A stretch of 64,000 nucleotides of DNA from Candidatus Staskawiczbacteria bacterium RIFCSPHIGHO2_01_FULL_39_25. GTDB taxonomy: Bacteria > Patescibacteriota > Minisyncoccia > Minisyncoccales > Staskawiczbacteraceae. Position numbers and translations under genes: made by a program. Where the stretch lies: contig MHOO01000008.1 of NCBI GenBank assembly GCA_001820095.1, positions 8,597 to 72,596 of the forward strand, written 5' to 3'. The notes beneath the pieces were generated by a model. That model saw nothing but the letters and a program-made list of their open reading frames with translations. It searched no databases and was not told the origin of the DNA. Shown piece by piece: positions 3,249-48,374 of the stretch. Position 1 is the stretch's first letter. The number at the start of each line of letters is the position of its first letter.

Positions 3249-4013
3249 ATGCCCATAAAAAAAGTAGTTATTTCAGCGGCAGGACAGGGGACCCGCATGC
3301 TGGAGCTCACTAAAGATAAATCAAAGCATCTTATTACTGTTGAAAATAAGCCCTTTTTGGCATACTTGCTGGATAACATTCTAAAGGCTGGCTACAAGGA
3401 AATTATTATGGTGGTTGGGTTCCGCGAAGATATGATACGGGAATTTTTAAAAACGTATACGTTTGACGGCAAAGCTCCAAATATTAAACTGGTAAACCAA
3501 TTTGAACTATTGGGCCCAAAAGAAAAAGAATATGGAACTGCCTGCCCCTTAAAATGCGTGAAAGATTTAGTAAAAAATGAAAATTTTATTTCCCTGGTGG
3601 GGGATAATTTTTACACGGTTGAAGATTTAAAGCTTATGAATATTGACGATGAATATACCTATGTAGCAGGGCTTGAACATGACCATCCTGAAAAGTTCGG
3701 GGTATTGATTAAAGACGGGGAATTTTTGAAAGAAATTATTGAAAAACCCAAGGAATTTGTGGGAAATTTGATTAACACTAGCCTTTATAAATTTACCCCC
3801 GAAGTGTTTGAAAAGTTACTATTAATTCAAAAGTCCGAAAGAGGAGAATATGAAATTACGGATGTAATTTCCCTATTAGCCAAAGAAAGGAAAGTAAAAA
3901 TAAAAAGAACGAAAAATTATTGGATGGATTTCGGCCGGCCCGAAGATATAGAAAAGTTTTCTAAGTTTATAAAAAATGGAAACGATAGCTCTGTCTCAAA
4001 AAGCACTCGATAA
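3249..4013 (+). CDS. Sugar-phosphate nucleotidyltransferase (GlmU/RmlA-like N-terminal fold)
   Basis: SAAGQGTRM (GxGTR) motif. I chose the ATG at 3249, 2 nt after the leuS stop, over the ORF-track start at 3237. Confidence 0.7.
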   Translation: MPIKKVVISAAGQGTRMLELTKDKSKHLITVENKPFLAYLLDNILKAGYKEIIMVVGFREDMIREFLKTYTFDGKAPNIKLVNQFELLGPKEKEYGTACPLKCVKDLVKNENFISLVGDNFYTVEDLKLMNIDDEYTYVAGLEHDHPEKFGVLIKDGEFLKEIIEKPKEFVGNLINTSLYKFTPEVFEKLLLIQKSERGEYEITDVISLLAKERKVKIKRTKNYWMDFGRPEDIEKFSKFIKNGNDSSVSKSTR

Positions 4014-4578
4014 AGCAATAACCGCTTTACGCGATGGCGATGTAATCATTTTTCCTACTGATACGGTATATGGATTTTTGGCGGATGCAAGCAATAAAAA
4101 AGCGGTTGATAAAATTTACAAAATAAAAAAGAGGCCGAAGTCAAAACCGCTTTCTGTGTTTGTGAAGGATTTAAAAATGGCAGAATCATTGGTTAAAGTA
4201 GATGAACGCCAGGCCAAAATTTTGAAAAAATTTTGGCCTGGCCAATATACGTTTATATTAAAAAGAAAAAAAACCAGTCTTACAAATCCGACGGCCGTAG
4301 GATTTGTAAGACTATATGGACTTAATAAAAAAACTATTGCCATACGCATTCCCAAACACACATTCTTGCAAAAATTGCTCAAAAAAGTAAACAGGCCTTT
4401 AGCGCAAACTTCAGTGAATATTTCAGGCGAGCTGCCATTAATAAACATAGGAGATATTATAGAAAAGTTCGGTAGTGATAAGAATATTCTCATCATTAGC
4501 GCTGGAGACTTAAAAAAGAGCAAACCCTCAAAAATTACTGATTTAACAAATAATACTATTAAAACTCTAAGAAAATGA
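3976..4578 (+). CDS. tsaC: L-threonylcarbamoyladenylate synthase, TsaC/YrdC/Sua5 family, carrying an in-frame palindromic insertion
   Basis: Motifs FPTDTVYGF, KKRPKSKPL, FWPG, IAIRIP and AQTSVNISG. Confidence 0.8.
   Translation: METIALSQKALDKAITALRDGDVIIFPTDTVYGFLADASNKKAVDKIYKIKKRPKSKPLSVFVKDLKMAESLVKVDERQAKILKKFWPGQYTFILKRKKTSLTNPTAVGFVRLYGLNKKTIAIRIPKHTFLQKLLKKVNRPLAQTSVNISGELPLINIGDIIEKFGSDKNILIISAGDLKKSKPSKITDLTNNTIKTLRK
4276..4313. repeat. Family-A palindromic element, copy 1 (inside tsaC)
   Basis: AGTCTTACAAATCCGACGG/CCGTAGGATTTGTAAGACT, 19+19 nt with one mismatch. Related copies lie at 11365 and 11944. Confidence 0.9.
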
Positions 4579-5819
4579 AGCTTAAACAAGGGGATTCTCA
4601 AATATCAAAATTAATTGCATTGGAAACCGAGCGGCAAAAAAATACCCTGCAGATGATTCCATCTGAAAACCATTGTTCGCCGGCGGTGCGCGAAGCTTTA
4701 GGGTCTATTTTGACTGACAAATACGCCGAAGGCTATCCGGGAAAGCGATACTACGGTGGAAACCAGTTTATAGACAAAGTGGAAAGCCTTTGCATTGAGC
4801 GCGCTAAAGAGTTATTTAACACTGAGCATGTGAATGTCCAACCCCATTCGGGAAGCCCGGCAAATGCGGCTGTGTATGTGGCAACCTGCCAGCCAGGCGA
4901 TACCATTATGGGGCTGGCTTTGCCCATGGGCGGGCATTTAACCCATGGAACGAAAGTAAGCTTTTCGGGCAAATTTTTTAATTCCGTGCAGTATGGCGTT
5001 GATGAAAAAACGCATTTGATCAATTATGATGAGCTGGCCAAACTGGTTCAATCGCATAAGCCAAAGCTGATGTGGGTTGGGGCAACGGCCTATCCGCGTA
5101 TTTTTGATTGGGCTAAGCTGGGCGAGATTGCTGATTCTGTTGGCGCATATCTAGCTGCTGATATTGCTCATATTGCAGGATTAGTGGCTGGGAAAGCCCA
5201 CCCAAACCCCGTGCCGTTTGTGCATATCGTAACAACAACAACTCATAAAACATTGCGCGGGCCGCGGGGAGGCATGATTATGGTTACCAAAAAAGGAATT
5301 GAAAAAGATCCCGAATTGCCCAAGAAAATTGATAAAGCAGTGTTTCCCGGACTCCAAGGCGGGCCGCACGAAAATGCCATTGCTGCCATTGCAGTTTGCT
5401 TGAAAGAAGCGGCAACGCCGGCATTTAAAAAATATGCGGCGCAGATTGTGAAAAATGCTAAAGCATTGGCCAGCGAACTGAAAAAATATGATTTTAACCT
5501 GGTTTCCGGTGGAACCGATAACCATTTGCTGCTGGTTGACTTGCGTAATAAAAATATTACCGGGGCCGAAGCGCAAGATTTATTGGAAAGCGCGGGAATT
5601 ACGATAAATAAAAATAGCATTCCTTATGACCCGGCTGGGCCATTTAAGCCATCGGGCATGAGGCTTGGGACCCCTGCCATTACTACGCGGAGCATGAAAG
5701 AAAGTGAAATGAAAAAAATTGCAGGGTGGATTAATCAGGTTATTTTAAACCCGAATTCCGCAGGGAGGGTTAGCGCGGAAATTAGGAAATTTTGTAAAAA
5801 ATTCCCACTTCCAAAATGA
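4575..5819 (+). CDS. glyA: Serine hydroxymethyltransferase
   Basis: TTTTHKTLRGPRGG PLP-lysine motif and YPGKRYYGG. There is an ATGA overlap with tsaC. Confidence 0.95.
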   Translation: MKLKQGDSQISKLIALETERQKNTLQMIPSENHCSPAVREALGSILTDKYAEGYPGKRYYGGNQFIDKVESLCIERAKELFNTEHVNVQPHSGSPANAAVYVATCQPGDTIMGLALPMGGHLTHGTKVSFSGKFFNSVQYGVDEKTHLINYDELAKLVQSHKPKLMWVGATAYPRIFDWAKLGEIADSVGAYLAADIAHIAGLVAGKAHPNPVPFVHIVTTTTHKTLRGPRGGMIMVTKKGIEKDPELPKKIDKAVFPGLQGGPHENAIAAIAVCLKEAATPAFKKYAAQIVKNAKALASELKKYDFNLVSGGTDNHLLLVDLRNKNITGAEAQDLLESAGITINKNSIPYDPAGPFKPSGMRLGTPAITTRSMKESEMKKIAGWINQVILNPNSAGRVSAEIRKFCKKFPLPK

Positions 5820-8272: not shown

Positions 8273-10307
8273 AGTCGCAGTCTTTGTTTGAGCATTTTAC
8301 TTTTTTGCTTTTTGTTTCCACTAAGATGGATTTGCATAGTGGGCAGAATTTATTGACCGGCTTATCCCATAGCGCAAAATCACATGTAGGGTAGGTGTCG
8401 CATCCGTAAAATATCTTGCCTTTCCTGGTTTTTTTAGCCCCCATGTGTCCGGTTTTACACTTTGGGCAAGTAATATCCAATTTTTCTGCCTGCATAGAAG
8501 GGTCTTTTATAATTGATTCGGTATGTTTGCATTCAGGGAAACCCGTGCATGCGTAGAATCTGCCGAACCGCCCCATTTTTTCTATCATGGGTTTTTGGCA
8601 CTTAGGGCAGATTTTGTCGGTTTTAATGTCTAGGTTTTCCTTAGGCACATCTTCATATTTTTCTTTCAGGTTTTTTGCAAACGGGCCATAGAAATCTCTA
8701 ACGGTTTTTTCCCAGGTATCTTTTCCTTCTGCAACTTCGTCTAGCTCTTTTTCCATTTTTGCGGTAAATTCAATATCTACAATTTCTGGAAAATTCTTTA
8801 CTAACATCTCGTTTACAATGACACCCATCTCGGTAGGGAAAAATCTTTTTTGCTCATTTTTTTCAATGTAATGTCTATCTTGAATAGTAGAAAGCGTAGG
8901 GGCATAGGTTGAGGGTCTGCCAATGCCGTGTTTCTCAAGCGCTTTAATCAAGCTTGCTTCATTATACCTTGGCGGGGGCTCGGTAAAATGCTGGCTGGGA
9001 TTGATGTTTACTAATTCCACAATTTCCTTTTCTTTCAATTCCGGCATTTCATTTTCAGTGAATTTCATGGGGTATACCTTCAAGAAGCCGTCAAATTTTA
9101 AAATCTGCCCGTTGGCGCCGAAGGTATATTCGTTGGCATTAATTTCAACCGAAGTTGCGTTAAAAACCGCAGAAACCATTTGGCTGGCAATGAACCGCTG
9201 CCATATTAACGTGTACAATTTCAGCTTTGCGGCATCTAAGTTGTTTTTTAATAATTCGGGAGCTTGTTGGGCATAGGTTGGGCGGATGGCCTCGTGGGCT
9301 TCTTGCGCTCCCTTGCCTGCCTTGTACCGTTTTATTTGAGCATAATTTTTTCCAAATGAATCTGTGATGAATTTTTCAGCGTCTGCCAGTGATTGTTGTG
9401 ATAAATTTAATGAATCGGTCCTATGATAGGTGATATGCCCCTCTTCATATAACTTTTGCGCCACTGACATGGTCATTTTTGCGGAATACCCGAATTTATT
9501 GGCTGCGGTCTGCTGAAGCGTGCTGGTAGTAAATGGCGGCAAAGGGTTTTTCCTAGTTTCTTTTTTTTCTACACTCGCTATGTTATATTCTGCCTGTTCT
9601 AAATTTTTTAAAATAGCATCGGCTTCCTCTTTATTTTTAATTGCTAATTTATCAATCGTTTTGCCGTCTTTCTTAATTAAATTTGCTTGAAAGTCTTGGT
9701 TATTGTTTTTTGCTCCTTGTTTTTTCAATAAAGCCATGATTTGCCAATATTCCTGCGCCACGAATTTTTTGATTTCTTCCTCCCGTTCTACCACTAATCT
9801 AACTGCTACTGATTGTACGCGGCCGGCTGAAAGGCCCTTAGCTACCTTTTTCCATAAAAAAGGCGAAATCTTATACCCTACGATTCTATCCAAAATTCTC
9901 CTGGCTTGCTGGGCATCTACCAAACTCATATCAATTTTTCCGGGAGATTGTAACGCATGATCAATGGCTGTTTTCGTTATTTCATGGAATACAATTCTTT
10001 TTGGATTTTTTAGCCCTAAAGCTTCCGCCAAGTGCCATGAAATTGATTCTCCCTCGCGGTCTTGGTCAGTTGCCAAAATCACTTCATCGGCGGCTTTGGC
10101 GTCTTTCTTTAATTCGGCAATCACTTTTTTCGCTTTTGGCGGTATTACATATTTGGGCTCAAAGTTTTTTTCTACGTCAATTCCAAAATCCCTTTTTGGC
10201 AGATCCCTTACATGCCCAAAAGACGCAACTACCTTGTAGTTTTTTCCTAAGAATTTACTGATAGTACGGCTTTTTGTGGGTGACTCAACTATAATTAACG
10301 ACTGCAT
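8256..10307 (-). CDS. topA: DNA topoisomerase I with C-terminal zinc ribbons
   Basis: Toprim N-terminus (IVESPTK), active-site HITYHRTDS, and several CxxC..CxxC fingers. Confidence 0.95.
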   Translation of the reverse strand: MQSLIIVESPTKSRTISKFLGKNYKVVASFGHVRDLPKRDFGIDVEKNFEPKYVIPPKAKKVIAELKKDAKAADEVILATDQDREGESISWHLAEALGLKNPKRIVFHEITKTAIDHALQSPGKIDMSLVDAQQARRILDRIVGYKISPFLWKKVAKGLSAGRVQSVAVRLVVEREEEIKKFVAQEYWQIMALLKKQGAKNNNQDFQANLIKKDGKTIDKLAIKNKEEADAILKNLEQAEYNIASVEKKETRKNPLPPFTTSTLQQTAANKFGYSAKMTMSVAQKLYEEGHITYHRTDSLNLSQQSLADAEKFITDSFGKNYAQIKRYKAGKGAQEAHEAIRPTYAQQAPELLKNNLDAAKLKLYTLIWQRFIASQMVSAVFNATSVEINANEYTFGANGQILKFDGFLKVYPMKFTENEMPELKEKEIVELVNINPSQHFTEPPPRYNEASLIKALEKHGIGRPSTYAPTLSTIQDRHYIEKNEQKRFFPTEMGVIVNEMLVKNFPEIVDIEFTAKMEKELDEVAEGKDTWEKTVRDFYGPFAKNLKEKYEDVPKENLDIKTDKICPKCQKPMIEKMGRFGRFYACTGFPECKHTESIIKDPSMQAEKLDITCPKCKTGHMGAKKTRKGKIFYGCDTYPTCDFALWDKPVNKFCPLCKSILVETKSKKVKCSNKDCDYAELV

Positions 10308-10318
10308 AATTTTTATTT

Positions 10319-11356
10319 TTATTTATCCCTATCCCTTCTTTCAACAAATTTTTTCACCTCTTCATAATTCATCTCCTTTGGCCATAATAAATTTCCCTCG
10401 GCAGAATAAATGGGGATGATATGTTCGGGTTTATTTTTATAAACATCTAATATAGCTTTTTTGGCCATTACCATATACTCCTGTTTTTTAGCTTCTGCAT
10501 CTTCGCTATGGTCAATCATATAAGATACGCTATATTGTTGTTTTTCTTTTTCTGTTGCAATTCTCATGATAGCAGGAATAATAATGCCCAGAAAATACTT
10601 TGCCTTAATGCCAGAGTTTGTTACGAAACCAGTTCCGGGCGCATATGATTCTGTTTCCTGCCCACTTTTCATGGCATCTATAACTACATTAGGATCTTCG
10701 GGCGATGGAGTTACCATATATTGATTACGTTTTAGTCCAGGCGCAGCTATGGAATGAGTTCTTTGATTTTGAGCGTGTTTTAAATAGAAATCTAAATCAA
10801 CTTCTTTTAATAAGAAGGATACATCAAACATAATATTAATTCTACCTGATGAAAAGCGTCCGTAATATACTTGTGGCTTGTCTTTTCCCATTACTGGAAA
10901 GTCGTTAACTTCTTGTTCGTGTATATTTTTAGATCTGCCATTTATATTAAAATAAAGAGTGCCTTTCAATCCATTTTCAAGTATTGATTGTACTGTCTTA
11001 GATCCTTGCTCTATATCTGAAATTTGAGGAGGTAATTGCAAGCCAAATGTCGGCTCGACTCCCGAACGGGCAACTCCTGAATAGGCGAGTCCCTTTTCAT
11101 TAATATCCCGAACTTTTCCCATTATTTTTTCTATAATCTCAGGCGATAATTCTTTTTCATTTGTTTTAGTAGATTTTTCAGGGTAGGGGAATGCCTCTAA
11201 TTCTTTTCGCATTTCTTCTTCTGAAACAATTTGTTCATCAAGAGCTTTTCTCTCCGGGTCTTTGCCAAAATTAATTCCATCTGGAATCTTCTTTTCATTG
11301 ATATCCCTACCTATATTTATTTCATTTGGCACATTCTCCCGTCTTATTTCACTCAT
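10319..11356 (-). CDS. Hypothetical protein (345 aa), no recognisable motif
   Basis: Long ORF with host-like composition and a charged N-terminal third. I see no family signature. Confidence 0.5.
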   Translation of the reverse strand: MSEIRRENVPNEINIGRDINEKKIPDGINFGKDPERKALDEQIVSEEEMRKELEAFPYPEKSTKTNEKELSPEIIEKIMGKVRDINEKGLAYSGVARSGVEPTFGLQLPPQISDIEQGSKTVQSILENGLKGTLYFNINGRSKNIHEQEVNDFPVMGKDKPQVYYGRFSSGRINIMFDVSFLLKEVDLDFYLKHAQNQRTHSIAAPGLKRNQYMVTPSPEDPNVVIDAMKSGQETESYAPGTGFVTNSGIKAKYFLGIIIPAIMRIATEKEKQQYSVSYMIDHSEDAEAKKQEYMVMAKKAILDVYKNKPEHIIPIYSAEGNLLWPKEMNYEEVKKFVERRDRDK

Positions 11357-11364
11357 AAAATTAA

Positions 11365-11402
11365 AGTCTTACAAAACCTACGGCCGTAGGTTTTGTAAGA
11401 CT
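11365..11402. repeat. Family-A palindromic element, copy 2
   Basis: AGTCTTACAAAACCTACGG/CCGTAGGTTTTGTAAGACT, a perfect 19+19 palindrome. Confidence 0.9.
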
Positions 11403-11403
11403 G

Positions 11404-11931
11404 TTACATTTCTTCAATTAAAAATATTTTAACAAATTCATCTAAATTGTACATTTGTAATAATTTTTCTGTTTTATCTGAAACATCGTAAGGGGTTATC
11501 CAGACACTTTGCTGGAACATTTTATATCCCAAATTATGTAACACACTTCTTAATAGGTCTCTTGATTTTCTATATTTTTCTGGAACGTCAAAAATAAGCA
11601 TCGCCCATTTACCATCATCTCGCTTTTTCTTTCCCTCGATAATAAAGCTTGCTTTCAGCACTTTATTTAGTCCTTCCTTGGTGAGCATGACTGCCATATT
11701 GCCTTCCAAATTTTTTATTCTTATATAATTTTTCCTTTTTGCATAATTTACTAAGTTGCTAAATGCTTTTTTGTTTTTGTCTTTTCTATATTTATCAAAA
11801 ACTGGATTTTTAATGCCATGCCAGGAATTATACATAGTTGGTCTTTTAGTTAGAAAAGCCACAATATCGCCTGTTTTATCTAGGATATTGTAAAGATCCC
11901 ATAAAAATTTATCAGTAACGGGAGGCTGCAT
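11404..11931 (-). CDS. PaaX-family winged-helix protein (small, 175 aa)
   Basis: Core W-x-ML-I-FDVPE-x5-R-x-LLR-x2-L-x3-GY-x5-SVWITP matches the PaaX-type W..FDIPE..R..LR..L..GF..WI.P signature. A WH-like segment precedes it. Confidence 0.6.
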   Translation of the reverse strand: MQPPVTDKFLWDLYNILDKTGDIVAFLTKRPTMYNSWHGIKNPVFDKYRKDKNKKAFSNLVNYAKRKNYIRIKNLEGNMAVMLTKEGLNKVLKASFIIEGKKKRDDGKWAMLIFDVPEKYRKSRDLLRSVLHNLGYKMFQQSVWITPYDVSDKTEKLLQMYNLDEFVKIFLIEEM

Positions 11932-11943
11932 AGTCTTGTGATG

Positions 11944-11980
11944 GTCTTACAAAACCGACGGCCGTAGGTTTTGTAAGACT
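11944..11980. repeat. Family-A palindromic element, copy 3
   Basis: GTCTTACAAAACCGACGG/CCGTAGGTTTTGTAAGAC with one mismatch. Confidence 0.9.
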
Positions 11981-12017: not shown

Positions 12018-12896
12018 TTAGTTCAATGAATATACGTTGCCTCCTAAGTTGCGTATCTTACCTGAAATTTCCAGTAAGGCAAGCGTAGTTGCTACCAATG
12101 AAGCCTGCAATTTTGTTTTTTCAATAATATTGTCTATATACATTGCTTCTTCTTTTAAAATATTTAGAATAACCTGTTCTTCGTTGTTTCCGGCTAAAAG
12201 ATCCTTTTGTTCTTTTATTGGCGCTAAATGCAATGCTTCTAAAATATCATTAGCGCTCTCTACAAGCGTTGCCCCGTTTTTTATTAAACCATTGGGCCCT
12301 TTGGAATTTAGAGAGAAAATCGGCCCGGGCATGGCGAATAATTTTTTCTTATGTTGTTTTGCATAATTAGCCGTAATTAACGAGCCGGATTTTTCTTTCG
12401 CTTCAATCACCAAAATTCCCAATGATAAGGCTGAAATAATGCGGTTTCTTCTGGGGAACGTAAATTTTGAACCCTTGGTTCCCGGAGGCAATTCTGAAAT
12501 AAGGCACCCGCCATGTTTGATAATATCCCGTGACAGTTGCATATTAGATTGGGGATAGATGCTTTCTTCGTCTAATCCGCTGCCGAGCACCGCAACCGTT
12601 CTCTTTCCATTTTCAACGCAGGTTCTGTGGGCAAAAGTGTCAATTCCCGGAGCCATTCCTGAAACAATGGTTATATTTGAATCTACTAACCCCTTTGCTA
12701 TGGAAATAGTAGCTTGTTGGCCGTAGGGTGAAGGGCGCCGTGTGCCTACTATCCCCACACAGGCTTCGTTGGCAATAAAATTTCCACGGTAGTACAGCGC
12801 TTTGGGTGCATCGGGAATTTTTTTTAATGATGCCGGATAATTTTTATCGTCTTTTTTTATAATTTTTATTTCTTCCATTAATGCATGATAACACAA
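12018..12896 (-). CDS. dprA: DNA-processing protein DprA/Smf
   Basis: GIVGTRRPSPYG, SGMAPGIDTFAH and a C-terminal WH-like tail. Confidence 0.9.
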   Translation of the reverse strand: MCYHALMEEIKIIKKDDKNYPASLKKIPDAPKALYYRGNFIANEACVGIVGTRRPSPYGQQATISIAKGLVDSNITIVSGMAPGIDTFAHRTCVENGKRTVAVLGSGLDEESIYPQSNMQLSRDIIKHGGCLISELPPGTKGSKFTFPRRNRIISALSLGILVIEAKEKSGSLITANYAKQHKKKLFAMPGPIFSLNSKGPNGLIKNGATLVESANDILEALHLAPIKEQKDLLAGNNEEQVILNILKEEAMYIDNIIEKTKLQASLVATTLALLEISGKIRNLGGNVYSLN

Positions 12897-13332: not shown

Positions 13333-15271
13333 ATTGTCTCATTTTTTCTACGGCATCCGCCAGCATTTGGCAGTATAAATTTAACCCTATTTTATTGATT
13401 GAGCCAGACTGTTCTTTTCCTAAAATATTGCCAGCTCCCCGTAGTTCCAAGTCTTTGATGGCAATTTGGTACCCAGCTCCTAATTCTTTTGCCTGCGCCA
13501 GCGTTTTTAACCGTTCTTTTGCTAATGGGGTTAGTTTTTTAGGATAAAATAAGTAGGCAAAACTTTTTACGTGGGACCTGCCCACGCGGCCTCGTATTTG
13601 ATAGGCTTGGGAAAGTCCTAATCTTGAAGCATCTTCTATGATAATGGTATTTACATTGGGCAAATCAATTCCATTTTCAATAATCGTGGTTGCCACCAGC
13701 ACTTTTGTTTTTCCTTTCTGGAAATTGTCCATTATGTTTACTATTTCCTTTTCAGGCATTCTTCCGTGAATGCAAGAAAACGTAACATGGGGTATTAATT
13801 TTTTTAATTTTTCTTTGGTTCTTTCTATCGTTTCAACCCGATTATGCAAAAAATAAACCTGGCCTTCTCTTGCTAATTCAGCACGAATTGCTTCTTGAAT
13901 GGCATTTTTATTATAGGGAAGGATTTGTGTATGAATCGCCGTTCTCCCCGTGGGCGGGGTTTGCATCAAGCTTATATTTTTAAAAGAAGAGAGCGCTAAG
14001 TAGATAGTTCTTGGAATTGGGGTTGCCGAAAGGCTTAGCACATCCAATGAAGGCCTTGCCTGCCGTAATTTTTCTTTTTGCTTTACCCCGAAACGCTGTT
14101 CGTCATCAATAATTAAAAGTTGTAAGTTTTTAAATTCAATGTCTTTTGATAAAATCCGATGGGTGCCTATGACTACGTCAATGGTTCCCGTTTGCAGCTG
14201 ATGCAATATTTTTTTCTGTTCTTTTTTTGTTTGCAATCTTGAGATTATTGCTATTTTGACGGGAAGTTTTTCAAACCGTTTTTTAAAATTATTGGAATGC
14301 TGGTTGGCTAAAATGGTGGTAGGGCATATGACGGCAACTTGGTAATTATTTGATACGGCCAACAAAGAACTTCTTATGGCTATTTCTGTTTTTCCAAAAC
14401 CTACATCTCCGCAGACGATTCTATCCATAGGTTTTTCGCCCTGCAAATCCTTTTTTATATCTTCAATGGCTTGTATTTGGTCGGGTGTTTCTTGATGCAT
14501 AAACCCAGAAGCTAACTGGGATTCTAATTCTTTATCAATAGCGTAGGGCTTGCGTGTAACAATTTCTTTTTGACTGTAAAGCGCGAGGAGTTCTTTGGCT
14601 AGCTTTTCTACATTTTCTTTAATGTGCCTTTTTGTCCTTTGCCATAAGGAGGATCCCAGTCGTGAAATAGCAGGGTCGGTAAAGCCCACATACCGTGAAA
14701 GCTTTCTCTCTAATCCAACGGGTACATACAACTTATCTTCTTTTGCATACTCTAACACATAGTATTCTCCGTTATTAATGTTGTTGATTCCAATAAATTT
14801 TCCCACTCCATGGTCCAGGTGAACCAAGTAATCTCCTGATGCGATATTTTTTATGTCAGAAAATAGTTTTTCTGATGTTAACTTTTTCTTTAAAATCTCT
14901 TTTGCTTTTTCCTCATCGGCAACGGTTATATCCAAAAGCACAATGCTTTCAATAATATTCCCTAAAAAATCCAAACGGATTGCTTGATTCATGTTGATAG
15001 GGAACACTTCAATAATGCCTCCTGTTTGCGAGAATTCTCCAGGATCTGAAATCTTGAACACCTTTTCATATCCCATGATGTCAAGTTTCCTTAACAGCTC
15101 TGAACTGCTATAGCGGTCGCTCTGTTTTAAAAATATGATATTATCCTGAAAAAACTGCTGGGTTTTGCTTGATTGTAAAATTTCTTGTAAATTTTCCTGA
15201 AACCAAAAAACCTGCTTTTCTAAAAAGTAGGGAGTGATGCTAGCAATAAGAATATTATCAATTATAGGCAT
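13331..15271 (-). CDS. mfd: Transcription-repair coupling factor, compact form (646 aa)
   Basis: CarD/RID-like LVHLDHGVGKF. Helicase motifs GDVGFGKTE, DDEQRFG and RGRVGR. It lies downstream of pth, as in many bacteria. Confidence 0.85.
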   Translation of the reverse strand: MPIIDNILIASITPYFLEKQVFWFQENLQEILQSSKTQQFFQDNIIFLKQSDRYSSSELLRKLDIMGYEKVFKISDPGEFSQTGGIIEVFPINMNQAIRLDFLGNIIESIVLLDITVADEEKAKEILKKKLTSEKLFSDIKNIASGDYLVHLDHGVGKFIGINNINNGEYYVLEYAKEDKLYVPVGLERKLSRYVGFTDPAISRLGSSLWQRTKRHIKENVEKLAKELLALYSQKEIVTRKPYAIDKELESQLASGFMHQETPDQIQAIEDIKKDLQGEKPMDRIVCGDVGFGKTEIAIRSSLLAVSNNYQVAVICPTTILANQHSNNFKKRFEKLPVKIAIISRLQTKKEQKKILHQLQTGTIDVVIGTHRILSKDIEFKNLQLLIIDDEQRFGVKQKEKLRQARPSLDVLSLSATPIPRTIYLALSSFKNISLMQTPPTGRTAIHTQILPYNKNAIQEAIRAELAREGQVYFLHNRVETIERTKEKLKKLIPHVTFSCIHGRMPEKEIVNIMDNFQKGKTKVLVATTIIENGIDLPNVNTIIIEDASRLGLSQAYQIRGRVGRSHVKSFAYLFYPKKLTPLAKERLKTLAQAKELGAGYQIAIKDLELRGAGNILGKEQSGSINKIGLNLYCQMLADAVEKMRQ

Positions 15272-15809
15272 TCATCGTCTTTTCTAGTCCGTTTTTAATG
15301 AAAAAATCAAGGGCTTCGGCGGTTTTTGCAATAGCGGAATTAATCATTTCCTGTTCCTCATTGGTAAATTTTTTGATGACAAATGTTTCCACTGATTTAG
15401 GTTTGCCTTTTTCCGGGCAGATGCCAATCTTAAATCGTATAAAATCTTTGGTTCCTAATATTTCAATAATAGAATTTACCCCTTTGTGGCCGCCTGATCC
15501 GCTATCTTGTGCAATTTTCAATTTTCCTATTGGCAAATCTATATCATCATGGACGATAACGACATCTGACATTTGACCTTTAACATTTGACACAATTTTT
15601 TTGACGGCGAGTCCAGATTCGTTCATGAAAGTTTGCGGTTTTGCTAAAATAACATTGTTTTTTTCTGAAATCAGCGAGGCATATTTTTTTGATAATTCAA
15701 AATCGGGAAAATTGTTTTTTTGGGCAAAAAAATCAATGGCCGTAAAGCCTGCATTGTGTCGCGTGTTTTTAAATTTTTCTCCGGGATTTCCCATCCCTAC
15801 AATTATCAT
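15258..15809 (-). CDS. pth: Peptidyl-tRNA hydrolase
   Basis: VGMGNPG, TRHNAGF and HDDIDLP motifs. Confidence 0.95.
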   Translation of the reverse strand: MIIVGMGNPGEKFKNTRHNAGFTAIDFFAQKNNFPDFELSKKYASLISEKNNVILAKPQTFMNESGLAVKKIVSNVKGQMSDVVIVHDDIDLPIGKLKIAQDSGSGGHKGVNSIIEILGTKDFIRFKIGICPEKGKPKSVETFVIKKFTNEEQEMINSAIAKTAEALDFFIKNGLEKTMNAYN

Positions 15810-15818
15810 ATTGCAGTT

Positions 15819-15859
15819 ATTACTTTGAATTACGAAAGCATTTCGTAATTCAAAGTAAT
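15819..15859. promoter_or_regulatory. Perfect 19-bp stem / 3-nt loop hairpin abutting the pth start codon
   Basis: ATTACTTTGAATTACGAAA-gca-TTTCGTAATTCAAAGTAAT. Confidence 0.6.
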
Positions 15860-15892
15860 TATACTATTTTTTTGTAATTTTTCCAGAGCGCA

Positions 15893-16574: not shown

Positions 16575-17207
16575 ATGGATTATAATTTGTCAAATAACAA
16601 TCAAAAAGAAGAAAATAGAAACACGCCCCCGAATGTCCCAGATAATAAATTTCAGGATTTCATAAAGAAATATCTTCTTGTCGGATGGGACCTTTTAAAA
16701 ATAATACTTATTGCCTTAGTCATAGTGCTGCCTATCCGTTATTTTCTGTTCCAGCCCTTTATTGTAAAAGGCGAATCTATGGTTCCTAATTTCCAATCAG
16801 GAGATTACCTCATTGTAGATGAAATTTCATATAGGATTGGAAACCCCCAACGAGGAGATGTCGTGGTTTTAAAATACCCATTAGACCCTACCCAGCGCTA
16901 TATAAAAAGAATTATTGGCATGCCAGGAGAAACTTTTGAAATCCAGAATGGGAATATCATAATTTCTCGAGATGGTAAAAAATTATTTTTAGAAGAAACA
17001 GGCTACCTGCCGCTTCTTTCAAGTACGGATGGCAACGTGAAAGTTACCCTAGAAGCGGACGAGTATTTTGTGCTAGGTGATAATAGGCAATTTTCTTATG
17101 ATTCAAGGCGATGGGGAGTTTTACCCAGAAAAGATATTATTGGCAAAGCAATTTTCAGAGTTTTCCCTCTATCAATGATGACCTATATTTCTTCTCCTAG
17201 CTACTAA
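16575..17207 (+). CDS. lepB: Signal peptidase I
   Basis: GESMVPN (Ser), IKRIIGMPGE (Lys), GDNRQFSYDSR, and an N-terminal TM segment. Confidence 0.9.
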   Translation: MDYNLSNNNQKEENRNTPPNVPDNKFQDFIKKYLLVGWDLLKIILIALVIVLPIRYFLFQPFIVKGESMVPNFQSGDYLIVDEISYRIGNPQRGDVVVLKYPLDPTQRYIKRIIGMPGETFEIQNGNIIISRDGKKLFLEETGYLPLLSSTDGNVKVTLEADEYFVLGDNRQFSYDSRRWGVLPRKDIIGKAIFRVFPLSMMTYISSPSY

Positions 17208-17299
17208 GTAATCCACGAATACCAACGAATTTTAAAACGAATACCAACGAATTAAATTCGTCGCAATTCGTAAAGCATTCGTTGCCATTAGTGGATTAG

Positions 17300-19598: not shown

Positions 19599-19874
19599 AT
19601 GCAAGATACCGTAAAATCTATTGAAAAATATTCAGGTAAAATAGCAGGCCAATTGGCCATGTTTGTTAAAAAATATTTTGGAGAGATGCTCACGGTTTCC
19701 GGGTTGGTTATTTTTTTCTATAATATACTTGATTTCAGTTACCGCAGAGTTTCTACTAGTGTGATTGCTTATTACTATAAGCCATCAACATTGCAGTTGA
19801 TAACCATTGGTATTGCATTGCTTACTGTTGGAATTATGATTATGAGGAATAAGGATAAAAATTATGGAAAATAA
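19599..19874 (+). CDS. Hypothetical small membrane protein
   Basis: Two hydrophobic helices and no recognisable motif. Confidence 0.4.
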   Translation: MQDTVKSIEKYSGKIAGQLAMFVKKYFGEMLTVSGLVIFFYNILDFSYRRVSTSVIAYYYKPSTLQLITIGIALLTVGIMIMRNKDKNYGK

Positions 19875-23488: not shown

Positions 23489-25036
23489 ATGACTCCGTCT
23501 AAAGCGCTCTTTTATTTTTGCCTTTCTTTCATCATAGGAATATTTTTTGCTTCACTTATTGAAATTCCCCAGGTTATTTCTTGGGGTTTTTTGTTGACGG
23601 GAATTCTCATGATTTTTACTCCATTCGTGATTCGTGTAAATTCATCAGCCATTCGTGAAAGTTCGTTAATTACGTTCAACGGCTACCACGCCGTGGTAGC
23701 CGTTGAACGTAAGTTAATTATTGGATTTTGCATATTATTTTTAGTGGTGGGTGTTGCCAGGTTCCAAATTGCTGAATTTGCCATTGCCAATGACCAGTTA
23801 GTTAAACTAAACGATACGCCGGATAATATTGCGCTTACAGGCCGAATCATTGATGCGCCCGATATTCGGGATACATCCCAGAAATTAAAAATTAAAGTTG
23901 ATAGAACTAAGAGCATGGTGCTGGTTACCACTCAACGTTTTCCCGAATACCACTATTTAGATGAGGTAAAATTGACCGGAAAGTTGAAGAAGCCGCCCGA
24001 ATTTGAGGATTTTAATTATAGAAATTATTTATTAAAAGATGGAATCTATTCTATTATGAGTTTTCCAAAGATTGAATTAACTTCACAAGAACATCATTAC
24101 ACAGTGGTTACTTTTTTATATAGCAGGATTTTATTGCTAAAAGAAGTATTCAGAACATCAATCAGCCAAAACTTTTCTCCTCCGCAAAGCGCTCTTTTAG
24201 AGGGCATTATGCTGGGGAACACTTCTGGCATGAGCCGCGAGGTAAAAGATAAAATGTCAGCTACCGGCTTAACCCACCTTACGGCAATTTCCGGTTCTAA
24301 CATCGTAATTCTAAGCTTAATTTTACTTCATGTTTTGCTCTTTTTAGGATTTTGGCGCGGCCAGGCTTTTTATATTACCGTGGCATTCATCTGGATTTAT
24401 ATTATTATGACCGCTCTCCCTCCTTCGGGCATACGGGCTGCTATCATGGCAACTATTTTCTTATTAGGGCAAAAATTAGGAAGGCAAAATACCAATTCAA
24501 GGGTTATTGTGATAGCGGCTGCATTGATGACCGTGCAAAATCCTCTGCTTTTAATATATGATGTGGGTTTTCAGCTTTCTTTTCTGGCTTTATTGGGAAT
24601 TATACATTTAAAACCAATTACCGATGCCTTATTCATTAAAGTTAAGTATAAAGAAGCAAAGAATTTGTTAGCTATAGTTTCTATGACGCTCGCTGCCCAA
24701 ATCTATACCGCTCCTATTATTATGTATAACTTCAAGCAAATTTCTTTGGTCGCCCCTATTACCAATCTTTTAGTGATCCCGGCTATTACCTGGATAATGG
24801 TTACGGGGTTTATTGCAATTGTTTTCGGGATTTTTTCAACTACATTGGGATTCATTTTTTCTCTGCCTTGCTGGATACTGCTGACATACTTTTTAAAAAT
24901 AATGGATGTTTTTTACCAGCCGTGGTCCGTTATAGCCATGCAGAATGTTTCTTGGATTTGGGTTGCCTTTTATTATTTAATCCTCGCATGGCTGGTGTGG
25001 CTTCTTCATAAAAGACAACAGCCGAAATTTTTATAG
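23489..25036 (+). CDS. comEC: ComEC/Rec2 DNA-uptake channel (no metallo-beta-lactamase domain)
   Basis: N-terminal TMs, an OB-like DUF4131 region and a competence domain (GLTHLTAISGSNI), 515 aa in total. Confidence 0.8.
   Translation: MTPSKALFYFCLSFIIGIFFASLIEIPQVISWGFLLTGILMIFTPFVIRVNSSAIRESSLITFNGYHAVVAVERKLIIGFCILFLVVGVARFQIAEFAIANDQLVKLNDTPDNIALTGRIIDAPDIRDTSQKLKIKVDRTKSMVLVTTQRFPEYHYLDEVKLTGKLKKPPEFEDFNYRNYLLKDGIYSIMSFPKIELTSQEHHYTVVTFLYSRILLLKEVFRTSISQNFSPPQSALLEGIMLGNTSGMSREVKDKMSATGLTHLTAISGSNIVILSLILLHVLLFLGFWRGQAFYITVAFIWIYIIMTALPPSGIRAAIMATIFLLGQKLGRQNTNSRVIVIAAALMTVQNPLLLIYDVGFQLSFLALLGIIHLKPITDALFIKVKYKEAKNLLAIVSMTLAAQIYTAPIIMYNFKQISLVAPITNLLVIPAITWIMVTGFIAIVFGIFSTTLGFIFSLPCWILLTYFLKIMDVFYQPWSVIAMQNVSWIWVAFYYLILAWLVWLLHKRQQPKFL
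23670..23712. repeat. Family-B palindromic element, copy 1 (in frame inside comEC), flanked by direct repeat GTTAA
   Basis: TTACGTTCAACGGCTACCACG-c-CGTGGTAGCCGTTGAACGTAA (21+1+21). GTTAA occurs at 23665-23669 and 23713-23717. Confidence 0.9.
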
Positions 25037-29169: not shown

Positions 29170-29180
29170 TTTGAGGCGCA

Positions 29181-29213
29181 TTGAACGGCTACCACGCCGT
29201 GGTAGCCGTTCAA
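29181..29213. repeat. Family-B palindromic element, copy 2 (intergenic)
   Basis: TTGAACGGCTACCACG-c-CGTGGTAGCCGTTCAA. The outer stem is TTGAAC/GTTCAA, versus TTCAAC/GTTGAA in copy 1. Confidence 0.9.
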
Positions 29214-29244
29214 ATTTCAAAATTCAAATTTAAAATTCAGAAAT

Positions 29245-40288: not shown

Positions 40289-40318
40289 ACTATTATTACG
40301 ATATTAACTCTAAAAAAA

Positions 40319-40352
40319 GTACCTTGAAACAACGATCGTTGTTTCAAGGTAC
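40319..40352. terminator. Family-C perfect 34-nt palindrome; bidirectional terminator
   Basis: GTACCTTGAAACAACGA/TCGTTGTTTCAAGGTAC with A7 before and T5 after. Confidence 0.8.
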
Positions 40353-40372
40353 TTTTTGCTATAGATTATACG

Positions 40373-40939
40373 TTATAAATTAAAGTGCCTTTTTAGTCTA
40401 AGGTCATCATGTATTGTATCTGCAATAATAATATTAATAAAAGAACTTATATTAAAAAATTCACATAAAAACTGAATTTCTTTCTCGCAAGGATAAGGAC
40501 AAACCAAAACACTTTTTTGTAATTGATAAAAATTTAATTTTTGTAATTTTTGTCTTAATGCATCCCTGCCATATCTTCTTCTTTCTGGGATATCGAAGGT
40601 TATAATACGCCATTTTTTATCCCAAGTGTTTTGTTTTTTGATCTCTAGCCTTTCGATGTTAATTTCTTTAACTTTCCTTTTCCCCTTTTCTGTAATTTGA
40701 ACTAAACAATCTCCATTTTCTTTTTCCTTTAAGATAATAAAATTATTTCTTTTTAATCCCCTCAAAGATCTGGCTATTTTTTCTTCATTGATTTTATTTT
40801 TATTATATCTCTTATTTTTTATAATTGCTTTTGCTATGTTTGTTAAAAAATACGGAGACGTAGAAGCAACAATAACGATTCCGGTTAAAGCAATAGTTAA
40901 AAGAATTTCTTTAGTTATGCTATTGTATTGCCCTTTCAT
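40373..40939 (-). CDS. PaaX-family winged-helix protein, second paralogue (188 aa, N-terminal hydrophobic helix)
   Basis: W-x-K-K-W-RIITFDIPE-x5-R-DALRQKL-x3-NF-x5-SVLVCPYP matches the same signature as 11404..11931. Confidence 0.55.
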   Translation of the reverse strand: MKGQYNSITKEILLTIALTGIVIVASTSPYFLTNIAKAIIKNKRYNKNKINEEKIARSLRGLKRNNFIILKEKENGDCLVQITEKGKRKVKEINIERLEIKKQNTWDKKWRIITFDIPERRRYGRDALRQKLQKLNFYQLQKSVLVCPYPCEKEIQFLCEFFNISSFINIIIADTIHDDLRLKRHFNL

Positions 40940-40961
40940 TCATATAGCATATACCAAAAAT

Positions 40962-40995
40962 GACGCTTGAACAAACGATTGTGGTTTAAAGGTAT
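40962..40995. repeat. Family-C element, degenerate copy (25/34 identical to 40319-40352 by hand alignment)
   Basis: GACGCTTGAACAAACGATTGTGGTTTAAAGGTAT. Confidence 0.6.
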
Positions 40996-41000
40996 ATTTT

Positions 41001-46917: not shown

Positions 46918-46970
46918 TTCCTGAATGACGCCCTTGTTCGTTTGGTAAACGAACTTAAGGGAAAAACAAA

Positions 46971-47000
46971 AAACCCGCTTTCGCGGGTTTTTTGTTTTTT
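46971..47000 (+). terminator. Strong rho-independent terminator (preceded by a second hairpin at 46931-46961)
   Basis: AAACCCGC-tttc-GCGGGTTT followed by TTTGTTTTTT. Confidence 0.8.
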
Positions 47001-48295: not shown

Positions 48296-48319
48296 TAGTA
48301 TTTAGCGAAAAATGCTTTA

Positions 48320-48354
48320 AATCAAAAGCCCGCAATTTTTGCGGGCTTTTGATT
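48320..48354. terminator. Bidirectional terminator, perfect 16-bp stem
   Basis: AATCAAAAGCCCGCAA-ttt-TTGCGGGCTTTTGATT. Confidence 0.8.
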
Positions 48355-48374
48355 CGCATTCTACATTCTTAAGC

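Follow-up and report, generated by a model that had tools for sequence, protein, structure and literature searches.

We analyzed a 64,000-nt stretch of contig MHOO01000008.1 (below, the window) from Candidatus Staskawiczbacteria bacterium RIFCSPHIGHO2_01_FULL_39_25, a member of the Patescibacteria, in which the threonylcarbamoyl-AMP synthase gene tsaC is read in frame through a 38-nt palindromic repeat. Two further copies of this repeat bracket a single small gene, which codes for a winged-helix protein with a Cas2-like (PaaX_M) domain, and relatives of both the gene and the palindrome recur in other genomes. We favor, with a probability of roughly 0.6, the reading that the 38-mer stems from the borders of a mobile PaaX_M cassette, of which it is a solo repeat; processes acting on the DNA would spread it and keep it perfect, and within TsaC it would be a neutral passenger.

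The in-frame palindrome of tsaC

The host gene, tsaC (3976..4578, plus strand), is an essential tRNA modification gene. Its product is matched by the Pfam family Sua5_yciO_yrdC (PF01300; E = 1.7e-51, residues 17 to 200) and is 100% identical to the threonylcarbamoyl-AMP synthase P0001 of a Ca. Staskawiczbacteria metagenome-assembled genome from the Rifle aquifer. The gene is intact, as the alignment with homologues shows that all family-invariant residues are kept, and its stop codon overlaps the start of glyA at 4575. The repeat at 4276..4313, AGTCTTACAAATCCGACGGCCGTAGGATTTGTAAGACT, consists of two 19-nt arms with no spacer that are 95% complementary, with a single G/A mismatch, and that meet in the center ACGGCCGT; it is translated as SLTNPTAVGFVRL, residues 101 to 113 of TsaC. 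An earlier account made from the letters and open reading frames (ORFs) of the window, the sequence-only reading, had described this palindrome and its in-frame position, which the sequence, the ORF and the Pfam match confirm. It had also pointed to an antisense ORF (4116..4601) that encodes the same peptide; translation bears this out, and it is a trivial consequence of the symmetry of the palindrome. The core ACGGCCGT occurs three times in the 64 kb, each time as the center of one of three 38-nt palindromes, and none of 100 dinucleotide-preserving shuffles of the window gave any match to the 38-mer at up to three mismatches. Over 14.6 kb spanning all three copies, the window is identical to the assemblies ENA ERZ27254767 and NCBI GCA_001820275.1; since two independent assemblies agree across all three, the palindromes are not an assembly artifact. 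Folded as RNA, the copies reach -19 to -26 kcal/mol, with z-scores of -4.2 to -7.8.

The palindrome falls in a part of TsaC that varies in length. Among the 120 closest homologues (55 to 66% identity), the segment between the FWPG strand and the (T/S)IA(I/L)R strand could be parsed in 110; it comprises at most 14 residues in 50 of these (exactly 14 in 46, with the consensus KRKPxxKLYGVxKx), 15 to 17 residues in 8 and 18 to 38 residues in 52, and the TsaC of the window has 24. In the PDB alignment, the solved TsaC/Sua5 structures have an 8- to 9-residue gap opposite the window segment. In an alignment-based AlphaFold model (mean predicted local distance difference test score [pLDDT], 89.4), residues 101 to 113 form a coil between the strands at 91 to 97 and 120 to 124 and make up the sole 10-residue block whose mean pLDDT is about 60. 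The shorter loop in many homologues, the gap in the solved structures, the coil in the model and the intactness of the gene together indicate that the palindrome is a lineage-specific in-frame loop extension; the sequence-only reading had left both the lineage specificity and the surface-loop position to alignment and modeling, and both came out in its favor. On balance, the 38-nt palindrome adds 10 codons (30 nt), and its outermost bases therefore overlap codons that already existed. A neighbor-joining tree of the 110 TsaC proteins, with the loop masked, is star-like.

A palindrome centered on ACGGCCGT is found at the same tsaC codons and in the same frame (ACG GCC GTn, read as T-A-V) in four of the other loci examined, L005, L006, L007 and L015. 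The peptide is similar to that of the window in the first three and decayed in L015, and the arms differ among all four yet stay self-complementary. Orthologues with a conserved peptide but no underlying palindrome, a case that the sequence-only reading had set against itself, were not encountered, as these four homologues, checked as DNA for their similar peptide, all carry the palindrome. Third-codon identity in six pairwise comparisons is 0.69 to 0.85 within the palindrome versus 0.36 to 0.53 in the rest of tsaC, and identical amino acids are specified by the same codon in 75 to 100% of cases inside it versus 42 to 56% outside. The variable residues of the insert (P/L/S and G/K/D) change via paired substitutions in the two arms. 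Judged from these sequence comparisons, what is conserved in the TsaC insert is the DNA and not the peptide.

This pattern extends to the wider family of copies, for which we compiled 19 sites from 11 genomes or contigs, with 17 stem pairs. Double compensatory changes are seen in 14 of the 17 pairs, in line with the conservation of the stem that the sequence-only reading had deduced from the window, where AAAACC/GGTTTT versus AAATCC/GGATTT is a real compensatory change in both arms. Stem cells are Watson-Crick or wobble paired in 92.6% of cases, as against 67.5% after shuffling and 31 to 38% with a slid partner. Out of 323 cells, 7 are G.U and 24 are unpaired; G.U pairs are thus not enriched, and given their rarity nothing points specifically to RNA. 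The only invariant block in the alignment is the central ACGGCCGT, the ends are of the form AGTC.../...GACT, and the length of the element ranges from 28 to 48 nt across the family, with 38 nt in the window.

Copies within a genome tend to resemble each other more than they resemble copies at the same place in other genomes. The TsaC copy of the window matches both flanks of the PaaX_M gene at 35 of 38 positions, but the TsaC copies elsewhere at 33, 29, 28 and 22 of 38. Similarly, the TsaC copy of L006 matches three other copies in its own assembly at 32 to 34 of 38 positions and other TsaC copies at 26 to 29 of 38. On the basis of this greater likeness within genomes, either the TsaC site has been rewritten repeatedly with the resident copies as the source, by gene conversion or reinsertion, or all copies track one trans-acting factor.

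The PaaX_M gene, its bracketing palindromes and their dispersed relatives

The sequence-only reading had listed two further copies of the repeat as intergenic, so that the tsaC palindrome is not alone in the window. They do lie outside genes, one at 11365..11402 as given and the other at 11943..11980, starting one base earlier than the 11944 stated (its first base is G rather than A); what had been missed is that they sit directly on either side of a single gene at 11404..11931 (minus strand). The upstream boundary palindrome (U site, 11943..11980; at most three mismatches to the 38-mer) lies past the stop codon of dprA (12018..12896, minus strand; Pfam DNA_processg_A), the gene preceding the cassette, and 12 nt before the ATG of the bracketed gene. 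The downstream one (D site, 11365..11402), a perfect palindrome of 19 + 19 nt, begins 1 nt past the stop codon of that gene and reaches to 8 nt from the start of the next one (10319..11356, minus strand).

The bracketed gene codes for a 175-aa protein that matches the Pfam family PaaX_M (PF20803, "PaaX central Cas2-like domain"; 3e-21). It also gives weak matches to Cas2 and PaaX models, PADLOC retrieves generic Cas2 models alone, and a PDB sequence search with it gave no match. The AlphaFold model (pLDDT 72) has a winged helix followed by a ferredoxin-like domain with a beta-alpha-beta-beta-alpha-beta arrangement; its best whole-length structural match is Escherichia coli PaaX (8a39), and its C-terminal domain superposes on Cas2 and VapD at 2.4 to 3.1 Å. 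D115, the aspartate at the position of the catalytic aspartate of Cas2, is invariant in the PaaX_M alignment. The protein belongs to a large, well-conserved family, with more than 380 homologues and identities to it of up to 79% among the 120 listed.

We found all of the PaaX_M genes of the window and the relative loci examined, 10 out of 10 in 8 genomes, to be bracketed on both sides within about 70 nt by a pair of palindromes. The window itself holds a second such gene (40373..40939, minus strand), whose 188-aa product is 28% identical to the first (phmmer E = 1.3e-18); a perfect 44-nt palindrome with the center ACGATCGT lies directly downstream of it (40314..40357) and a degenerate copy of that 44-nt palindrome directly upstream (40956..41000; AAAAATGACGCTTGAACAAACGATTGTGGTTTAAAGGTATATTTT, compare AAAAAGTACCTTGAAACAACGATCGTTGTTTCAAGGTACTTTTT). 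Across the 10 genes, the site centers are ACGGCCGT in six, ACGATCGT in two, including the second gene of the window, GCGATCGC in one and GCGCAATTGCGC in one. By eye and over these few cases, the presumed recognition helix of the PaaX_M proteins showed no obvious correlation with the sequence of the site center. In L012 and L008, the two sites of a cassette are reverse complements of each other (A-center-B ... B'-center-A') and are self-palindromic at the center and the outer ends only.

The cassette occupies different positions in genomes that are otherwise syntenic. It follows dprA in the window and in L006, L011 and L013, lies between tatD and leuS in L008 and between leuS and an NTP-transferase gene on the P0005 contig, follows ligA in L010, and lies between a GDPD gene and a lactamase gene in L012. 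Between tatD and leuS, L009 has a solo palindrome at the place where L008 has the cassette, and at the P0005 locus dprA and topA are adjacent with no cassette between them, which by gene order is the best candidate for an empty site. In L013 and L006, moreover, the 3' end of dprA (65 to 70 nt, stop codon included) is doubled, one copy lying beyond the far palindrome (L013, 9881-9950 versus 10600-10669, 71% identity; L006, 17948-18012 versus 17187-17251, 86% identity); in the window itself, no such duplication of the dprA end is detectable. Integration of a circular element that carries a copy of the end of the gene gives this layout. In these respects, the cassette behaves as an insertion.

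Two further features were seen in L010. A solo 50-nt palindrome with the center ACGGCCGT lies downstream of ftsW (11906-11955), which places ftsW between this solo copy and the D site of the cassette; genes other than PaaX_M may also be delimited by such palindromes. The U site of the L010 cassette is directly preceded by a run of 7-nt tandem repeats (CAACCTT/CAATCTT), at 9834-9950.

Copies of the palindrome are also translated in proteins other than TsaC. An unrelated 308-aa ORF in L004 carries a near-identical palindrome in frame, with the identical peptide SLTNPTAVGFVR. In L011, peptidyl-tRNA hydrolase (Pth) has a 16-residue insert, IEKKYPNSDGRQNQSI, from a ACGGCCGT-centered palindrome translated in another reading frame, and the Pth of the window (15258..15809) lacks this insert. 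The L011 Pth copy resembles the U site of the L010 cassette in its left arm and the D site in its right arm; the shared NCBI locus tags (A3C58_) suggest that L010 and L011 are the same organism. Directly upstream of pth in the window (15817-15861) lies an AT-rich palindrome of 21 + 21 nt with a 3-nt loop (TTATTACTTTGAATTACGAAA-GCA-TTTCGTAATTCAAAGTAATTA), unrelated in sequence to the 38-mer family.

The TsaC loop likewise houses palindromes of unrelated sequence in other lineages, as would follow if the loop after the strand at 91 to 97 tolerates insertions. All nine insert-bearing tsaC genes that could be read as DNA contain a palindrome, from four unrelated families: the ACGGCCGT type in five genes; CGTGTGAG-N7-CTCACACG, with the peptide CE[LI]GSHT, in L008 and L012; a perfect 57-nt palindrome in L009 (10299-10355); and TGTGGGACGTCCGACGTCCCACA, with the peptide WDVRRPT, in L011. 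Going by peptide pattern, these four types cover at least 30 of the 52 insert-bearing TsaC homologues. A scan of the relative loci examined found no copies of the GTGTGAG-N7-CTCACAC, GGGACGTCNGACGTCCC or ComEC-family (see below) palindromes beyond those already known. The TsaC of L011 has a second palindromic insert in its C-terminal part (19610-19649, minus strand; TATTGCGGGGTCAGACTCTGCAGGGTCTGACCCCGCAATA, encoding DIAGSDPAESDPA), which most homologues lack. A separate hairpin of 17 + 17 nt with a 3-nt loop is present within tsaC of the window at 4207-4243, made of the conserved QAKIL and KFWPG codons, and is also found in L005 (564-594); at its apex, at least six other homologues carry an 8- to 9-residue insert, TLR(L/H/F)(R/G)SGQ, the DNA of which is nonpalindromic in L008 and L012.

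A second family of palindromes in the window, TTGAACGGCTACCACG-C-CGTGGTAGCCGTTCAA, has one copy in frame within the ComEC ORF 23489..25036 (23668-23714) and another between a glycosyltransferase gene and htrA (29180-29214). The ComEC insert encodes ...ITFNGYHAVVAVE... between transmembrane helices, and none of 34 aligned representatives matches this stretch of about 20 residues, most having nothing there and a few having short unrelated residues. In L012, leuS (753 region) contains ATTACCGTTCAACGAACGATCGTGTGTTCAACGGTAAT, an imperfect ACGATCGT-centered palindrome whose arms resemble those of the ComEC family and which may be another in-frame insert. In the same genome as the window, some 2.3 kb before the window begins, L017 has an intergenic palindrome at 3738-3778, ATAATTTTTAGTCTTACCCTACAGGTAAGACTAAAAATTCT, with the outer arm of the 38-mer (AGTCTTAC/GTAAGACT) and without its inner part or the ACGGCCGT center; it may be a deletion derivative of the 38-mer.

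A proposed mobile cassette and the rival explanations

On the basis of the above observations, we propose that the resident copies of the repeat represent the two borders of a cassette, with about 580 to 650 bp between site centers, that encodes the winged-helix and Cas2-like PaaX_M protein and would constitute an insertional mobile unit in Staskawiczbacteria and related Patescibacteria. From these borders, palindromes would spread to other places by copying or conversion of DNA; a copy that arrives in frame within a permissive surface loop would survive, translated as a harmless loop extension. The agent that spreads the sites and keeps them perfect could be the PaaX_M protein or host recombination and gene conversion acting on extruded hairpins. 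The copy in TsaC would be selectively neutral for TsaC, doing nothing for the enzyme.

Several observations weigh against this proposal. The copy number is low, with three full copies in about 70 kb of the source genome, and exact-pattern scans with ACAAANCCNACGGCCGTNGGNTTTGT gave two loci each in genome contigs and in metagenome contigs, none of them from the source genome; the same scan of viral contigs gave no match. The loci examined showed neither a transposition event nor an empty site nor a circular junction, and solo copies have no flanking target-site duplication, the TsaC copy reading AAAAAAAACC|element|ATATGGACTT. Homogeneity within genomes is not universal, as the L010 and L011 cassettes each have unlike arms on their two flanks, and the occurrence of the palindrome at the same TsaC codons in five genomes also fits one old insertion that has been conserved since. 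The PaaX_M protein has the appearance of a transcription regulator; that it might cut or join DNA is a supposition. Finally, the loci are few, and part of them came to light through the motif or the genes of interest.

A more specific version of the proposal, in which the winged-helix and Cas2-like protein, as a nuclease or recombinase, itself drives the movement of the 0.6-kb cassette that encodes it, we regard as rather improbable. Since the center of the site is self-complementary, the site has no polarity; if such a protein resolved the flanking pair by deleting what lies between, the chromosome would be left with one perfect palindrome, a solo copy, and a circle would be released.

A different explanation takes the palindromes as binding sites of the adjacent PaaX-like repressor, serving autoregulation and a small regulon, with the TsaC copy as an intragenic operator or roadblock for tsaC-glyA kept by selection. 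The bracketed gene has the PaaX architecture of a winged helix and then a Cas2-like domain, the center of the site is self-complementary, as a dimeric DNA-binding protein would need, and the U site lies 12 to 45 nt upstream of the PaaX_M start codon; both the sharing of site sequence within a genome and the conservation of synonymous sites in TsaC would also be expected. However, the arms drift freely with compensation and differ between the flanks of one cassette in L010 and L011, so that structure is kept and half-site sequence is not, and close orthologues of the protein (63 to 64% identical to that of the window) have the unlike centers ACGGCCGT, ACGATCGT or GCGCAATTGCGC. Sites, moreover, also follow genes, separate convergent genes (L002) and occur within Pth and another ORF, and the flanks in L012 and L008 are not symmetric in themselves but are mutual reverse complements. 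As relocation of the cassette and duplication of the dprA end are also left unexplained, we consider operators an unlikely account of the palindromes.

The hairpins might instead act at the RNA level, as terminators, 3'-end stabilizers or RNase III processing stems that insulate the cassette mRNA, a role that has been suggested for many repetitive extragenic palindromes, the TsaC copy being a by-product or an attenuator of tsaC-glyA. Their great predicted stability (-19 to -26 kcal/mol, with z-scores down to -7.8), the strong covariation that keeps them paired, the terminator-like character of the D site on both strands in a loose scan, the usually better preservation of D among the flanks and the potential of the L012 and L008 flanks to pair across the transcript are all consistent with such a role. 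An RNA hairpin, though, needs no zero-spacer palindrome with a fully self-complementary 8-nt center, G.U pairs are not enriched, the ordinary terminators of this genome are different, with a GC-rich stem and a T run (46961-47000 and 48319-48355), and the TsaC copy has no T tract. There was no Rfam match to the palindromes, a tRNA being the only match in the window at the gathering threshold, and neither the concerted arm sequences across loci nor the relocation of the cassette is explained, which makes a role in RNA doubtful.

That the 13-residue extension of TsaC is adaptive and selected at the protein level, with the palindrome incidental, would agree with the recurrence of a TNxTAVxFV pattern in several TsaC homologues and with the intact gene, but is for practical purposes excluded by the greater conservation of synonymous positions inside the segment than outside, the identical peptide in the unrelated ORF of L004, the change of variable residues only through paired arm substitutions, the lack of the insert in about half of the homologues and its replacement by unrelated palindromes in others, and the low pLDDT and predicted coil of the segment.

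Established classes of element were considered as well. A plain intrinsic terminator, with a GC-rich stem and T tract, seems unlikely; the D site passes the loose scan on both strands, the U site and the TsaC copy do not, and typical terminators of the genome look different. A miniature inverted-repeat transposable element was rejected because no direct repeat flanks the solo copies and no insertion sequence is nearby. A CRISPR mini-array was rejected because two of the repeats, at a distance of 578 nt, have a gene between them, the third being 7 kb away; of the CRISPR machinery, the cassette shows no more than a Cas2-like domain, joined in its gene product to a winged helix.

Significance and comparison with known systems

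Colonization of genes by in-frame palindromic repeats is classically known from Rickettsia, with scattered intragenic repetitive extragenic palindromes (REPs) elsewhere. The same gene-colonizing behavior is now seen, with a much smaller element, in the Patescibacteria or candidate phyla radiation (CPR), a very large and almost uncultured group with tiny genomes. A full-text literature search found no report of palindromic in-frame inserts or of PaaX_M/Cas2-like cassettes in CPR/Patescibacteria; as it did find the literature on Rickettsia palindromic elements (RPEs) and intragenic REPs, in-frame repeat insertion as such is known, and its occurrence in CPR and the link to PaaX_M appear to be new. 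The several palindrome families in one TsaC loop, together with the ComEC case, imply that repeats account for some of the so far unexplained differences in length among CPR proteins, which matters for annotation, structure prediction and the choice of phylogenetic markers. The PaaX_M gene paired with its own palindromes offers a testable handle on a recurrent family, with two members each in the window and in L010, and is a candidate for a new kind of gene cassette. If the cassette were indeed moved by its own protein, it would be a minimal mobile element of a hitherto unknown class, with a Cas2-fold protein as its driver; such an element would seed in-frame palindromes across CPR proteomes and could bear on the recruitment of Cas2 into CRISPR adaptation.

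Among known systems, the RPEs are described as elements of about 100 to 150 bp, in ten families (RPE-1 to RPE-10), confined to Rickettsia and having no associated gene (Ogata et al. 2000, 2002, summarized in PMC10969869). They occur between genes and in frame in unrelated housekeeping genes, where the extra peptide lies in loops compatible with the fold and the same peptide turns up in different proteins (PMC10969869). The palindrome described here is likewise repeated and translated, in frame in TsaC of five genomes, in Pth of L011 and in the L004 ORF; its insert in TsaC also lies in a loop compatible with the fold, being a predicted coil with a pLDDT of about 60 opposite a gap in solved homologues; and the hosts of both have reduced genomes and a symbiotic or parasitic lifestyle. 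In contrast, the present element is only 28 to 48 nt long, has no spacer and a self-complementary center, belongs to Patescibacteria, and its resident copies bracket a PaaX_M gene. Hence, the RPE-like behavior proposed by the sequence-only reading holds for in-frame insertion of a repeat into loops of unrelated genes. The element resembles the RPEs in behavior but is not itself one of them, being four times shorter, belonging to a different phylum and having a link to the gene that its copies flank.

The PaaX of E. coli is the repressor of the phenylacetate catabolon, a protein of about 305 aa with a C-terminal PaaX domain. The cassette protein shares with it the winged helix followed by a Cas2-like middle domain. 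It differs in its length of 175 aa and in lacking the C-terminal PaaX_C domain, no paa operon is nearby, and its score against the PaaX equivalog model TIGR02277 is 28 bits, compared with a cutoff of 264.55. In having the 3' end of dprA (65 to 70 nt) on both of its sides in L013 and L006, the cassette is reminiscent of integrative elements that target the 3' ends of genes; unlike these, it has no integrase, spans only about 0.7 kb, and shows no such duplication at its other insertion places.

REPs are palindromes of 20 to 40 nt, and in the REPtron, two of them flank a gene for a REP-associated tyrosine transposase (RAYT, of the HUH/Y1 type) while others are dispersed and occasionally intragenic (PMC3733652). 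Their sequences are specific to a species or genome, and several bacteria have copies in frame within genes, in some cases at one and the same site of orthologues (PMC3733652). As with REPs, several copies of the short palindrome are present per genome, three in the window and four in GCA_964650025.1 (L006 and L001). The present palindromes differ from REPs in having neither a GTAG nor a CGTC end tag, in their perfect stems with no loop and in the low copy number seen, and the gene that they flank differs from that of the REPtron in matching only PaaX_M/Cas2-like models and not the HUH/Y1 transposase of the RAYT family. In architecture, however, with two palindromes flanking a dedicated gene and further copies dispersed, the REPtron is the closest known counterpart of the PaaX_M cassette.

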